From an uncultured virus (IMG/VR IMGVR_UViG_3300030098_006717) (Duplodnaviria > Heunggongvirae > Uroviricota > Caudoviricetes): a DNA stretch of 20,000 nucleotides. A model generated the notes under the pieces. That model did not search any database and had not been told where the DNA came from. It saw only the letters and a program-made list of their open reading frames with translations. How positions within the stretch are numbered: the stretch's first letter is position 1; each line of letters opens with the position of its first letter. Below are positions 1,700-17,595 of the stretch, one piece after another. Location: the IMG/VR virus record IMGVR_UViG_3300030098_006717; one strand, 5' to 3'. The position numbers and the translations under genes were made by a program.

Positions 1700-4195
1700 A
1701 TGGCTACTAAAAAAATTATAAATAATTCTATTCCTGATGAGGGTGGACTTGGTCAAATGAATATTGATGATGAAACTCTTTTGCAATCTGGTATTGGTGA
1801 TTTATTTCATTTATATACTACTAGACATGAATATGATTATAATGAAGATAATATAGAAACTTACCCATCCAATACTAATAATTCTTGGAATGATGGACTT
1901 AATTGGATGAGTGATGGTAGTGAATTTAAAATTATTAATGCTAAAATAGTAAATAGAGGTGTTAATATGGATGTTGTGGGTGGTGGATGGGCTGCTTATG
2001 TTGTAGATGATGCTATGAATCCTGATATAGCAAGTGCAGAATCAGGTAATGCAATTAGAGATGCAGTTGGTGGTACTAATGAGGCAAATCAAAATGATTG
2101 GGATGAAAGTTATGCATATCTTTATCACAAATCAAGAGGAACTATAAATTCAGGTGGATCTATTGGTGAGATTATAGAAGCTTCAAATTGTACTAATTGT
2201 CATGATGATTTAACAATTTCAGATTTTCCAAAAAACTTTAATACAGTTTCTGATGAATATACTGCTATTAATGGGGATATGGAAGAATTTTCAAAAGATA
2301 TGGGTTCTGGTAATAGTGCTTATCATGTAGTTATAAGAATGGCTGGAGATGCAGAAGATTATGGTCCTAATGATTCTAGAAATAGAAGTTATAACAAATA
2401 TACTTTAAGAAAAACTTTATTAAAAGATATGTGGATGCAAGGTGAAAATTTTGAAAATAGTCATGATGGTGGAAATTATGAAGTTTTTTGTTGGGGTAAA
2501 GGTGTGGGTGATTCAGTTGGTCAAGGTTTAAATTGTACACATAAAGTTGGTCCTAATACATCTACTGTTGCTGATAATTATAATATAGATGACTCGGATG
2601 AATGGGAAGATGTGACAGCAGCTGCTTTTAAATGTCAATGGTTGGCTGTTAAAGTAACTCCACCGACTTGGAAATTATCTGAAGCTCCTAAAGATATATA
2701 TTTTGGTGAAAATTGGTATAGGGGTATATATTGGATTAATGAGTTAGATAATAATGATTATATAAAAATAAGACCTGATAATTGGGTAGATTATACATTT
2801 TTATATACGGATAGTACAGAAACTGAATTTTTAGATCCAAATCATATATTTGATTTCAGACCAGTAAGTCATATTAGTGTAACTCATCCAGATGATGAAG
2901 ATCCACAAGATGATCAACCAGGAGATGGTATAGATATTCAATCTTTCTATGAGCCAGAAACAACAGAATTTCAATATTCTGTCGCTCCAAATGTTGTTAG
3001 ATTACAATTTAAAATGTCATATGATTATACAACTGCTGCAACTGAATTAAATTATTTTACTTATAATGCTGAATCTAATTTATGGGTAATAAATGATATA
3101 AATCCAGATTCTAATTCACAACTTGGATATCCAGGTGATATTGGTTTTAAAATGGTTGTAGTAGATTGGGAAGCTGAAGATTCTGATTTTGATTTTGATG
3201 ATATTTTATTTGATTGGCCACAAGATTATACTGAAATGAATAATCTTAGACAATTAAAAAATACTTATCATTTTAAAGATGTATATGATAAAGAAACTGA
3301 AACTTATAATTCTTTGTATCATCAGTATAATACGGCGGGATATAAAATTATAAAAGCATTAGTATTTAGTTATATTAAACATTCTAATGACCAAGATCTA
3401 ATTCAGGCTTTGAGATGGAAAGGTGTAGTTATAACTCATCATTTAGCCTATAGTTCAATAGATATGGAAGACTTTGGTTTGATTGGTGGTCCTGGATACA
3501 CATTTCTTCCATGGCCTTATACTACTCCTATTGTTGGTGGTATAAGTAATGATAGTCAATATATTAATAGTGTTGAAAATATTTTAGGTAAAAATTACTT
3601 TAAAGAAACTGAATATAATTCATATTTTCAGACATTAAATAGTTGGAAAAATAAACCTGGAAGTGAGATAGATGAGTTAGGTAAATATCCAGGTAAAATA
3701 GATTTTGGTCAATTAAGATATTTTAATAATGGTAATTTTGATATGAATAATTTACTTGGAATATCTTCTAATATAACAGATTTAGAAGATGGATCTATAT
3801 TCCATCCATATAATGATTTTAATCATTGGCAAGGTGATCCGTGTCAAACAGATGAGAATCAAGATTATTTAGATCAATATTTTGAAGATTTATATGAATG
3901 TACAAATTTACCAACATATCCTCAAGATTCTTGTGTTGGACTTATATTTATAGAAGACAGTATGCGTACTGATTTAAAAAATGCTTGTAAATTAGAATTA
4001 AGTGTTAGTGATATAGATAATGGTGCATTGATAGATACATCTTTGGGGGATAAAAAAGGTATACTTATAGGTGATTATTCTTTAGAGAAACGTGATTATT
4101 TAGATCCTGTGGCAAAGACATCAGAACCTATTGTACCTGAAATAGATGATGTTGATTCACCACCATTAAAATTTGTGGAGGATATTACTACATAA
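1700..4195 (+). CDS. Acidic 831-aa probable virion structural protein
   Basis: Long ORF starting 3 nt after the upstream stop. It has a PKD-like motif 'LYHQYNTAGYKIIKALV' and a C-terminal 'LIDTSLGDKKGILIGDY' shared with the upstream protein. Confidence 0.75.
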   Translation: MATKKIINNSIPDEGGLGQMNIDDETLLQSGIGDLFHLYTTRHEYDYNEDNIETYPSNTNNSWNDGLNWMSDGSEFKIINAKIVNRGVNMDVVGGGWAAYVVDDAMNPDIASAESGNAIRDAVGGTNEANQNDWDESYAYLYHKSRGTINSGGSIGEIIEASNCTNCHDDLTISDFPKNFNTVSDEYTAINGDMEEFSKDMGSGNSAYHVVIRMAGDAEDYGPNDSRNRSYNKYTLRKTLLKDMWMQGENFENSHDGGNYEVFCWGKGVGDSVGQGLNCTHKVGPNTSTVADNYNIDDSDEWEDVTAAAFKCQWLAVKVTPPTWKLSEAPKDIYFGENWYRGIYWINELDNNDYIKIRPDNWVDYTFLYTDSTETEFLDPNHIFDFRPVSHISVTHPDDEDPQDDQPGDGIDIQSFYEPETTEFQYSVAPNVVRLQFKMSYDYTTAATELNYFTYNAESNLWVINDINPDSNSQLGYPGDIGFKMVVVDWEAEDSDFDFDDILFDWPQDYTEMNNLRQLKNTYHFKDVYDKETETYNSLYHQYNTAGYKIIKALVFSYIKHSNDQDLIQALRWKGVVITHHLAYSSIDMEDFGLIGGPGYTFLPWPYTTPIVGGISNDSQYINSVENILGKNYFKETEYNSYFQTLNSWKNKPGSEIDELGKYPGKIDFGQLRYFNNGNFDMNNLLGISSNITDLEDGSIFHPYNDFNHWQGDPCQTDENQDYLDQYFEDLYECTNLPTYPQDSCVGLIFIEDSMRTDLKNACKLELSVSDIDNGALIDTSLGDKKGILIGDYSLEKRDYLDPVAKTSEPIVPEIDDVDSPPLKFVEDITT

Positions 4196-14356: not shown

Positions 14357-15445
14357 ATGAAAAAATTACTATCGATACTATTAACAGCAACTATCTTATT
14401 TGCGGAGGAAGGTAGTAATTACTTTGTAGACAACTTTTTAAAGTATTCTACATTTTATACGAGTGTGAGTTTAAATTCACCATTTGTTGCTCAATCACAA
14501 TGGGACGTTGATGTAGAAAACGGGACATTTGTAGAAACAACAAAAGAAAATGAGTTAGCATACAATTTATCAGTTGGTGTTAGGAAATTAGCACGTTTTA
14601 AATATCAGTCAAAAGGTAAAAACTTCTATGATGGTTCAGAAAAGAATTTATCTGATGTAGCTACAATTGGAAATGTAAGTGGTTGGGAGTATTTAGTTAA
14701 GTATTCTACAATCAGAGAATTTGGTGAAGAATTTGTAGATACGGAATCTTGGGTTAGATACTTGGGTGATAATTTTGTAGTTAAAGGTTCATATGCAAAC
14801 TTTGGAAGACAAGGTTTAGAATTTGGACAATTAGATGCAAGATGGAGAAAACCACTTGGTAATAGTTGGAATGTTACATTGGGTGGAAACTTTAGAGGAC
14901 ATCCAGCTTATGGTTTATTTCCATTCAATGATTGGTTAGCTGGTTCTAACGGACAATGGTGGGAATTAGCATATAACTATGGGTATGATGATGAATATTG
15001 GTTTGAAGATTTAAATCAGAATGGCATTCAGGATCCAGGTGAATATGGTAACTACGAGTGGTTTGATGAAAATGGTGAATTGATTGCAGAAACCGATGAT
15101 GAGTTTTATGAATATTATTACGGTGATATAATTAACCTTTACAATGAAGAAGAGATTGATAAGTTAGGTTATCAATGGGAGTCTTCACTTGTTATTGGTG
15201 TGGATTACTATTTATATGATAAACAATATTGGGTTCACGGGTGGGCTTCAATAATACCTTTTAGTAAAGGTTTAACAGATTATGCCTTTAAATATGAATC
15301 TGGTGATATTGACTTTGACATAGGTTTAGTAGCTGGATATAAATTTAACAGAAATATTGGTATCTTTGGTGAAGGAAGATATCTTAAATACTTTGGAATT
15401 GATGCTTACGAATTAAAAGCAGGTATTAATGTAACTATATTTTAG
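14357..15445 (+). CDS. Secreted outer-membrane beta-barrel-like protein
   Basis: Sec signal peptide MKKLLSILLTATILFA, alternating amphipathic aromatic-rich strands, and a C-terminal beta-signal 'YELKAGINVTIF' ending in Phe. AGGAG at 14345-14349. Confidence 0.75.
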   Translation: MKKLLSILLTATILFAEEGSNYFVDNFLKYSTFYTSVSLNSPFVAQSQWDVDVENGTFVETTKENELAYNLSVGVRKLARFKYQSKGKNFYDGSEKNLSDVATIGNVSGWEYLVKYSTIREFGEEFVDTESWVRYLGDNFVVKGSYANFGRQGLEFGQLDARWRKPLGNSWNVTLGGNFRGHPAYGLFPFNDWLAGSNGQWWELAYNYGYDDEYWFEDLNQNGIQDPGEYGNYEWFDENGELIAETDDEFYEYYYGDIINLYNEEEIDKLGYQWESSLVIGVDYYLYDKQYWVHGWASIIPFSKGLTDYAFKYESGDIDFDIGLVAGYKFNRNIGIFGEGRYLKYFGIDAYELKAGINVTIF

Positions 15446-15568
15446 ATGCCAAATAAAAAAGCCAAACAGAGAAAACAAGAAAGAAGAAAAAAAAATGAAT
15501 ATCTTAAAAGACATGGTAGAACTCGTAAACAAATAAAGAGATTTAAGAGGAGAAAGAAAAATGGATAA
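15446..15568 (+). CDS. 40-aa highly basic peptide MPNKKAKQRKQERRKKNEYLKRHGRTRKQIKRFKRRKKNG
   Basis: The ATG directly follows the upstream TAG and the ORF fills the gap. 21 of 40 residues are K/R. Not in the ORF track. Confidence 0.7.
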   Translation: MPNKKAKQRKQERRKKNEYLKRHGRTRKQIKRFKRRKKNG

Positions 15569-15620
15569 ATGTAATTGTGAATGTGAATGTTGTAAGAGTT
15601 GTGACAAATGCAAAAAATAG
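15561..15620 (+). CDS. 19-aa metallothionein-like Cys-rich peptide MDKCNCECECCKSCDKCKK
   Basis: GAGGAG at 15547-15552 lies 8 nt before the ATG. The peptide has 7 Cys in CxC/CC/CxxC arrangement and overlaps both neighbours. Confidence 0.55.
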   Translation: MDKCNCECECCKSCDKCKK

Positions 15621-16252
15621 GTGAAATATTAGTTGAAAAGGGTTATGTAACCCAACAACAACTTGAAGGTGTGTTAGCAGTAAAAGGTCCTGATGCTCAA
15701 GTAGGACAAGTTCTTATAGAGTGGGGATTACTTACGCAAGAACAATTGATGGAAGCTTTAAATATACAAGCTCCACCTCCTCCACCTCCTCCACCTCCAC
15801 CAGTTCAACAACAGATACCACAACAACAAATGTATCAACAACCTGTATCTCCACCTCCAAGTGGTGGTCCAGATTTAACAATGGACAATCTACAAACATC
15901 AAAGTTTAGAATTGATTTAAAAACTATGATATTTGTTGGTTCTATGTTGGTATCACTTGTAACTATGTATTTTACATTTATGGGTGAAATGGATGCTAGG
16001 TTCGGAGCACTTGAAAACCAAGATACAGAGTTGATGAATAATATTGATAAAAGACTTACAGAATTAGAAAACAAGTTTACACCGATTGGTGATGGGGTTT
16101 ATTCAGTAGATCCTAATACAACTTGGCCACCATCTCGTGGTGAATATACTATGAAACAGAATATGAATGCAAATAAGATTACTGTTTTGGAAGAAACTAT
16201 AGATAGATTAGAAAAAGAATTAGAAAAGTTAGAAAATAAAATAGATAAGTAG
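15608..16252 (+). CDS. Membrane-anchored protein: N-terminal MshEN-like domain, Pro/Gln linker, single TM helix, C-terminal coiled coil
   Basis: Tandem 24-aa motifs KIGEILVEKGYVTQQQLEGVLAVK and QVGQVLIEWGLLTQEQLMEALNIQ, five residues apart, match RLGxxLLxxGLVxxxxLxxxLxxQ. TM segment 'MIFVGSMLVSLVTMYFTFM'. Heptads 'LEETIDRLEKELEKLENKIDK'. Confidence 0.8.
   Translation: MQKIGEILVEKGYVTQQQLEGVLAVKGPDAQVGQVLIEWGLLTQEQLMEALNIQAPPPPPPPPPPVQQQIPQQQMYQQPVSPPPSGGPDLTMDNLQTSKFRIDLKTMIFVGSMLVSLVTMYFTFMGEMDARFGALENQDTELMNNIDKRLTELENKFTPIGDGVYSVDPNTTWPPSRGEYTMKQNMNANKITVLEETIDRLEKELEKLENKIDK
15773..15802 (+). repeat. CCW trinucleotide run encoding 10 consecutive prolines
   Basis: Sequence is cca cct cct cca cct cct cca cct cca cca. 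Confidence 0.95.
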
Positions 16253-16260
16253 GAGAGGTT

Positions 16261-16647
16261 ATGTTCAAAAAAATAATTATATTTGGAATGTTAGTTACAT
16301 CACTATTTGGTAATGTAAGAGAACTAACTGATGAAAACTTTGATAAGGCTATAAAAAGAGGTATGGTTGTAGTAGAATTTTATGCGAGTTGGAACAAAGC
16401 TAATATAGTGACATTATTAGATGAGTGGGATAACTTTGAAGTTAATAGAGTGTGTAGGTTGGATGTTGAAAAATATGATAAGATAATGACTTCAAATAAT
16501 GTAGTAGTATTACCAACAATAATTTTTTATCTTGATGGTGAAGAAGCGGGAAGACTTCAAGGTAATATGAAGTTTCAATTAGAAACTACAATAAAAGAAC
16601 TTGACAAGATGGTTGAGGAAATTTATAATAAAGATAAGTTCAATTAG
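16261..16647 (+). CDS. Secreted thioredoxin-fold protein without a CxxC active site
   Basis: Signal peptide, then 'ELTDENFDKAI...VVVEFYASWNKAN...RLDVE...VVVLPTIIFYLDGEEAGRLQG', a thioredoxin pattern with WNKAN in place of WCxxC. AGGAG at 16251-16255. Confidence 0.8.
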   Translation: MFKKIIIFGMLVTSLFGNVRELTDENFDKAIKRGMVVVEFYASWNKANIVTLLDEWDNFEVNRVCRLDVEKYDKIMTSNNVVVLPTIIFYLDGEEAGRLQGNMKFQLETTIKELDKMVEEIYNKDKFN

Positions 16648-16656
16648 GAGAGAGTT

Positions 16657-17595
16657 ATGAAAAAGTTATTTAATTTTTTATTTTTAACAATGTTTGTAAT
16701 GTTTGGATTACAATCTTGTGATGATGATGACACAATTGTGGGTGGTGGTATAGATATAGAGCCAGAATTAACAGGTTGTGAAGCAACATCATTTTACGAT
16801 TGGAGTGATTTTACATTTGAAACATCACTTGATGCTGGTGCAACTACTTGGTTAGGATTTGAATTAGATGAAACTACTTTGTTTTCAATTAATTTAAATC
16901 AACCTGGTTTTCATTGTGCAATATTTGAGGGATGTGATGGAGAGTTAGGTTCACCACCACCTTTATATAGTTTTATGTCAAATGGTAATGGACAAGAGGT
17001 TGGTATTGTAACAGAGGGTTCTTATTATTTAGAAATTACAAATACAAGACCTGGTAGATTAGATTTTAATTTTGGTATTAGTTTATCAGATATAGTTTAT
17101 GGATGTCTTAATGATGATGCATTAAATTATAATTCAGATGCAAATGTAGATGATGGTAGTTGTGAATTTAATGATTGTAATACGGATTACTATCAAGAAA
17201 ATTATGGTGAGATGATATTAGATTGTGATGGAAATTGTGCACCTATATCTTGGATAGCTGATGGATATTGTGATGATGGTGAATGGGGAATCTATGATGA
17301 AGAAGGTAATGTAGTTCCAATCAATTTATATTGTGCAGAATTAAATTTTGATGAGGGTGATTGTGAAGCAATTGATGAAGATTGTACACCTGGTTTGATT
17401 GAAGATTGTAACGGAATATGTGCACCTGCCAATTGGTTAGGTGATGGATTCTGTGACGACGGTTCTTATGAGTATAATGGAAATCCAATATTCTTCAACT
17501 GTGAAGAATTAAACAATGATAATGGAGATTGTGATGCACTTGGAAGAACGACACAACAAAGACAATTACCAAACGGGAAAATCAAAATCCAATAA
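16657..17595 (+). CDS. Cys/Asp-rich lipoprotein with LNR(Notch)-like repeats
   Basis: Lipobox LQS-C followed by DDDDT, a 'GCLNDDALNYNSDANVDDGSC' motif, and two 'C..W..DG.CDDG....C...N.D.GDC' repeats. AGGAG at 16646-16650. Confidence 0.8.
   Translation: MKKLFNFLFLTMFVMFGLQSCDDDDTIVGGGIDIEPELTGCEATSFYDWSDFTFETSLDAGATTWLGFELDETTLFSINLNQPGFHCAIFEGCDGELGSPPPLYSFMSNGNGQEVGIVTEGSYYLEITNTRPGRLDFNFGISLSDIVYGCLNDDALNYNSDANVDDGSCEFNDCNTDYYQENYGEMILDCDGNCAPISWIADGYCDDGEWGIYDEEGNVVPINLYCAELNFDEGDCEAIDEDCTPGLIEDCNGICAPANWLGDGFCDDGSYEYNGNPIFFNCEELNNDNGDCDALGRTTQQRQLPNGKIKIQ
17221..17532 (+). repeat. Two LNR-like Cys-rich peptide repeats (17221-17364 and 17404-17532)
   Basis: DCDGNCAPISWIADGYCDDG...LYCAELNFDEGDC aligns with DCNGICAPANWLGDGFCDDG...FNCEELNNDNGDC. 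Confidence 0.85.

Follow-up and report, generated by a model that had tools for sequence, protein, structure and literature searches.

A putative conserved micro-gene of uncultured marine phages and its candidate 19-residue metallothionein-like peptide

Metallothioneins are recognized by CxC, CC and CxxC groups of cysteines combined with few or no aromatic residues. Neurospora-type Cu-thioneins are short fungal metallothioneins, and the SmtA/BmtA-type bacterial metallothioneins are small Cys-rich proteins of the prokaryotic cytoplasm. According to passages of PMC12508003, metallothioneins contain 13-35% Cys and range from 22 to more than 300 aa, the smallest one cited there being that of Magnaporthe grisea (22 aa). 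In passages of PMC13317609 and PMC12917443, metallothionein genes are named as candidate viral auxiliary genes. Short Cys-rich ORFs have also been described as polycysteine leaderless sORF attenuators in mycobacteria, for which the available part of bioRxiv 10.1101/834739 gives two consecutive Cys codons as an inclusion criterion.

The window (the whole stretch of 20,000 nucleotides that was analysed) belongs to a virus record of 72,965 nt that carries baseplate wedge, PhoH, Hsp20, peptide deformylase and DNA methylase genes and whose sequence is present in marine metagenome runs. Since the closest cultured phages are just 27-29% identical, at one protein, the host is not assignable. At positions 15561-15620 on the + strand, the window contains a Cys micro-ORF whose translation is MDKCNCECECCKSCDKCKK, followed by a stop codon. 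This peptide has 19 aa, of which 7 are Cys (37%, spaced CxCxCxCCxxCxxC) and 5 are Lys, and its residues after Met are limited to D, K, C, N, E and S; CxC, CC and CxxC groups are all present. A Shine-Dalgarno-like (SD) GAGGAG (15547-15552, + strand), made of the codons AAG AGG AGA of an upstream 40-aa ORF, is separated by 8 nt from the ATG at 15561. Re-reading of the sequence therefore recovers the micro-ORF of the original prediction in all its elements, i.e. its length, its Cys and Lys counts, its three types of Cys groups and its well-spaced GAGGAG.

All neighboring genes are encoded on the + strand. Upstream are located a 362-aa gene without family match (14357-15445), which in many relatives directly abuts the MshEN-like gene, and a 40-aa Lys/Arg-rich ORF (15446-15568), a called gene in a cluster of 6 that is a frequent neighbor of Cys micro-genes, in either order. 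The downstream gene (15608-16252), called MshEN-like below, encodes a 214-aa protein that has an N-terminal MshE-related domain with a c-di-GMP motif, a polyproline linker and a hydrophobic segment. It scores 46.4 bits against NCBIfam NF053729.1 (cut-off 38) and weakly matches PDB 5HTL (E=0.0012). Compared with the motif given in passages of PMC5013675, the leading Arg is changed to Lys or Gln and the first Gln to Lys, so that c-di-GMP binding by this protein is not assured. This stand-alone phage MshE-related protein has 219 relatives in metagenomes. The micro-ORF overlaps the stop of the 40-aa ORF by 8 nt at its start and the MshEN-like gene (ATG at 15608) by 13 nt at its end, where C-K-K-stop corresponds to the first codons of that gene read off-frame. 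The overlap-free core (15569-15607, + strand, 39 nt) contains six of the seven Cys codons and is the sole gap of more than 10 nt between listed ORFs in the gene run, all others being of 10 nt or less.

The micro-ORF is beyond chance. No other ATG ORF of 10-45 aa with at least 5 Cys and at least 20% Cys occurs across the 72,965-nt genome, and none of 120 Markov-simulated genomes contains an ORF with at least 7 Cys and at least 30% Cys. The sequence itself recurs in other assemblies: one relative is identical to the window at the micro-ORF locus, a DNA contig that possibly comes from the source sample itself has 0 differences over 15368-15651, and a contig from a 2025 study has 0 differences over 15353-15594. 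One RNA run provides exact contigs at 15329-15550 and 15592-15756 and a variant over 15558-15610, none being exact across the ORF; RNA-run contigs cannot show transcription or translation, and this run was left out of the support for the micro-ORF. The start signals were compared with two backgrounds. Firstly, GGAG is found 5-8 nt before the ATG in 11/11 sequences of the family described below versus 44 of 2265 (1.9%) non-start ATGs of this genome, each of the 11 being reachable by at least one search that does not require GGAG. Secondly, the pattern GGAG-ATG-x-x-C-x-C gives a short Cys-rich ORF in 34 among the 120 matches listed, versus 0/36 for its ATA version (p=5e-5); when only distinct peptides are counted, the values are 30/111 among the matches listed and 0/23 (p=0.002). 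Together with the conservation reported below, these sequence data make it very probable that the micro-ORF is a translated gene under selection.

Relatives were fetched via the neighboring genes, i.e. independently of the peptide, and the best 80 of 219 metagenome relatives were read. A Cys micro-ORF is present on the coding strand in 15 loci among these best 80 of 219. It directly precedes the MshEN-like gene in 10 of the 72 loci having 100 nt of upstream sequence; nine of these were found by script and the tenth (L114), which is below the script threshold, is visible on reading, and one of the ten is identical to the window. Five viral loci were also examined, none of which has a Cys ORF at this junction. 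Two of these five virus records do have a related Cys micro-ORF, but it follows another gene some 3 kb further downstream; the other three, among them a 95% complete record, yielded no family-like copy. Five other occurrences of the peptide are on fragmentary records, in which the MshEN-like gene was not found, an absence given no weight because these records are incomplete. Among close homologs, six distinct 39-nt cores were selected for their DNA similarity among the loci obtained via the neighbor gene. Their Cys-codon sites vary in 0/18 cases versus 6/18 for the other sites (Fisher p=0.019), and Cys third positions vary in 0/6, in a genome that codes 98% of its Cys by TGT.

Pattern scans of viral contigs revealed 11 distinct DNA sequences sharing the spacing CxCxCxCCxxCxxC. 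They encode peptides of 17, 19, 20 or 21 aa, the frame being kept through the length changes. Since this set is defined by its Cys pattern, its Cys invariance is partly circular. Spacer residues swap among K, E, D and N, Cys content ranges from 33 to 41% and net charge from -2 to +2. The peptide tail is borrowed from the following gene (CKK, CNAE, CNK or C-stop), and the seventh Cys is retained whether it is provided by the TGC of the next gene or by a free TGT. The original prediction had proposed to look in related phages for conserved Cys codons with synonymous variation, and considered that loss of the ORF and of its ribosome-binding site in relatives would speak against it. Cys codons are invariant in close homologs while spacers vary, TGT/TGC exchange occurs in three of the seven Cys columns of the 11-sequence set, and the ORF and its SD are kept. 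A pattern lacking the SD/ATG requirement gave 21 matches, only 2 of which are ATG-started micro-ORFs of this phage group. In prokaryote genomes, one scan gave a single, uninformative match: a 12-aa ORF from a contig of a Poribacteria MAG, without GGAG and without any recognized metal gene beside it. The 7-Cys family is part of a wider class of Cys micro-ORFs (12-36 aa, 6-12 Cys, variable spacing) that are thiol-dense and devoid of aromatic residues. This class includes a 20-aa subfamily that was found with only two Cys fixed in the search: all nine Cys are kept in 9/9 sequences, with TGT/TGC exchange in six of the nine columns.

The genomic context of the 7-Cys peptide is highly variable. It is found after six different upstream genes and before at least three different downstream neighbors, which include the MshEN-like gene, the basic peptide, a 418-aa gene and genes close to a terminase large subunit. 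In locus L071, a complete peptide is located 1.3 kb from the MshEN-like gene and carries 15 nt that match the start of that gene. These 15 nt occur twice in this locus (1988-2002 and 3270-3284), flanking the inserted 418-aa gene, and both genes are whole. Gene order at the junction corresponding to 14357-16252 is strongly shuffled in relatives, and the same runs also contain forms that have neither small ORF. The swapped order of the basic ORF and the Cys micro-ORF is also found in one contig from an RNA run. No metal transporter or sensor was recognized beside any member, neighbors having been read by eye and two of them scanned. The best reading of these arrangements is that the micro-gene is dispensable and mobile.

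With a probability of roughly 57%, we consider that the 7-Cys peptide is a metallothionein-like metal binder. The composition put forward in the original prediction stands, with 37% Cys, CxC, CC and CxxC groups and no aromatic residue, and both MDKCNCECECCKSCDKCKK and its family show this combination. Seven thiolates could hold about two Zn/Cd ions or several Cu(I) ions. Spacers are free, charge is variable and the class is thiol-dense, as would be expected of peptides that, like metallothioneins, depend on their thiolate count and not on their surface. Furthermore, the odd number of Cys and the lack of a signal peptide speak against secretion as a disulfide-closed peptide. It is composition that suggests this function, the peptide being included in none of the curated families tested. 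Indeed, metallothionein models of Pfam and NCBIfam gave no match above cut-off (0/3 and 0/13 peptides for Pfam, 0/7 peptides for NCBIfam), in searches whose sensitivity is low for 20-aa queries. The best metallothionein profile, PF12749, reaches E=0.92 and 10 bits, versus a cut-off of 22, for one of 13 peptides, a member of another subfamily. A PDB sequence search with the peptides remained at chance level (E=3.2), no match was found in annotated phage records, and a 36-aa member of another subfamily retrieved from the ESM Atlas only unnamed clusters below 0.9. The patchy presence, the lack of a metal-gene neighbor and of a profile above cut-off, the resemblance of the DNA to a (TGTRAN)n repeat and the zero variation of Cys third positions in close homologs count against the metallothionein reading.

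If the peptide binds metal, large uncultured marine phages would carry a conserved, mobile micro-gene for a minimal metallothionein-like peptide of 19 residues. The micro-ORF would be translated as part of a polycistronic mRNA, its start being coupled to the stop of the upstream ORF, and ribosomes would be handed on to any following gene. During infection, the seven thiolates are predicted to enclose a small cluster of Zn/Cd or Cu(I) within the cytoplasm of the host, and the peptide may buffer or scavenge metal or oxidants in the infected cell. The position before the MshEN-like gene would be a by-product of gene shuffling in the region.

Comparison with described metallothioneins reveals both likenesses and differences. 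Like the smallest fungal metallothioneins, the phage peptide is very short and Cys-rich, has CxC groups and no aromatic residue, and probably has no fold without metal. Unlike them, it is encoded by a phage, belongs to a family of 17-21 aa with a CxCxCxCC arrangement and charged K/E/D/N spacers, matches no profile, and its metal binding is a prediction. Compared with the values in passages of PMC12508003, the family is at or slightly over the range of Cys content and its length is below the quoted minimum of 22 aa. As SmtA/BmtA bacterial metallothioneins, it is small, Cys-rich and would be located in the prokaryotic cytoplasm, but it is about one third as long, contains no His, has no Pfam/NCBIfam match and lacks a recognized repressor gene nearby. 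The genes mentioned in passages of PMC13317609 and PMC12917443 are likewise metallothionein-type genes on viral contigs; these are annotation-level calls, whereas gene callers overlook the phage micro-peptides and no profile matches them.

The gene-level evidence applies equally if the thiols of a real micro-protein serve a role other than metal buffering, an alternative that we regard as unlikely but that survives better than any other. The peptide could be a redox or sulfur buffer, or a small module stapled by metal or disulfides and binding to a protein of the phage or the host, for instance together with the neighboring basic peptide or in late assembly. Its neighbors are structural-region genes or the terminase large subunit and not metal genes, and a Cys micro-ORF adjoins the 40-aa basic ORF in 6 of the 10 distinct copies of that ORF in the loci examined. 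Moreover, one subfamily is preceded by a gene that may encode a selenoprotein, as it contains a conserved in-frame TGA. However, the free exchange among K, E, D and N and the charge ranging from -2 to +2 leave little specific binding surface, and the variability of the wider class in length and Cys number is what would be expected if only thiol number matters.

Alternatively, the locus could be a non-coding low-complexity (TGTRAN)n spacer, or a neutral filler that serves coupling and whose product is irrelevant. The overlap-free part is only 39 nt long, TGT and RAN codons alternate, all spacer codons but one have A at the middle position, presence is patchy, and none of five family peptides of 21-24 aa that were checked is among the called proteins. 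These features are outweighed by the retention of SD and ATG across six upstream contexts, the empty ATA control, substitutions that spare Cys codons and indels that stay in frame. In addition, reading of the best 80 of 219 relatives showed no decayed copy ahead of the MshEN-like start, and the conservation of nine Cys with synonymous exchange in the 20-aa subfamily does not fit such a spacer. We therefore consider this explanation improbable.

The ATG at 15608 has no GGAG of its own, in agreement with the weaker ribosome-binding site originally ascribed to it. However, an SD-like word is also absent in 33 of the 62 scored loci lacking the Cys ORF (among which the script binned L114), indicating that an SD-less start is ordinary for the MshEN-like gene. 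Passive translational coupling of the two overlapping genes, in line with the original proposal, remains likely in this genome. A promoter/terminator scan and RNA folding around the micro-ORF revealed nothing above shuffles (z=0.09 for folding of 15530-15660), and the centroid structure has no pairing over the start. Like the mycobacterial attenuators, as far as the available part of bioRxiv 10.1101/834739 describes them, the micro-ORF is short, Cys-rich, located directly before a gene and endowed with one CC pair; unlike them, it has an SD and sits within a gene run, no competing RNA structure is seen, the gene that follows is not a cysteine gene, and no single downstream gene is tied to it. 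The proposal that it is a Cys- or metal-responsive leader gating translation of the MshEN-like gene, as these attenuators do, could draw on the CC pair and on the 13-nt overlap with an SD-less start, conserved in five non-identical relatives, but is the least probable of all and is not supported, because the MshEN-like gene lacks an adjacent Cys ORF in 62/72 loci having 100 nt upstream and in 5/5 viral loci, the peptide also precedes other genes, neither a terminator nor an SD-hiding hairpin is present, the SD-bearing ORF inside a gene run is probably not leaderless, and the downstream gene is MshE-related and has no link to cysteine metabolism. Being conserved beside changing neighbors, the micro-gene is unlikely to act as a switch of the gene that it overlaps.

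Returning to the metallothionein-like reading, a broader proposal can be made tentatively, at somewhat less than even odds: marine phages may carry a widespread unannotated class of metallothioneins of 12-25 residues, the shortest known. These would control the level of free Zn/Cu or the thiol redox state of the infected cell, and would spread in the form of portable cassettes whose last codons come from the gene that follows. No description of this Cys micro-peptide family was found in the literature, with a coverage that is thin for subscription journals and confined to main texts; the supplement of PMC13317609, which lists viral metallothioneins, may bear on its novelty. Passages of PMC11705764 and PMC10694778 contain no mention of phage metallothioneins. 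If metal is bound, the size floor of natural metallothioneins would drop below the 22 residues quoted in the passages of PMC12508003. Such binding would also add a phage gene class overlooked by gene callers and profile libraries, and tie this class directly to the way infected marine bacteria handle trace metals. Since the peptide is cheap to synthesize, the metal-binding claim is directly testable.

Several other features were observed in the window and its relatives. The 9-Cys 20-aa subfamily and a 12-aa variant sit in tRNA gene clusters (ten loci), and this subfamily is followed by a conserved non-coding stretch starting with GCGCT(G/A)TTCTGCTCGC, without Rfam match at the gathering cut-off. 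In L003 (5822-6160), as in L002, L004, L005 and L102, an ORF of 35-38 codons is in frame with the next ORF across a TGA, whose context A-H-N-TGA-A-T-H is invariant in the five aligned loci. Judging from this context, selenocysteine incorporation or read-through is possible. A Cys micro-ORF overlaps the stop of this TGA-containing gene in L003, L005 and L102. Downstream of the MshEN-like gene, positions 16261-16647 encode a protein with a Thioredoxin fold (Pfam E=1.5e-10), a hydrophobic N-terminus and no CxxC, which is conserved at this place in relatives. A perfect sigma-70 consensus (TTGACA-17-TATAAT) is located at 16601-16629, just 5' of a 312-aa gene at 16657. The long ORFs of this genome have a mean Cys content of 3.2%. 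Finally, the window opens with an ORF (1-1696) that is the end of a 6914-aa protein (G000:C1:33917-54661).
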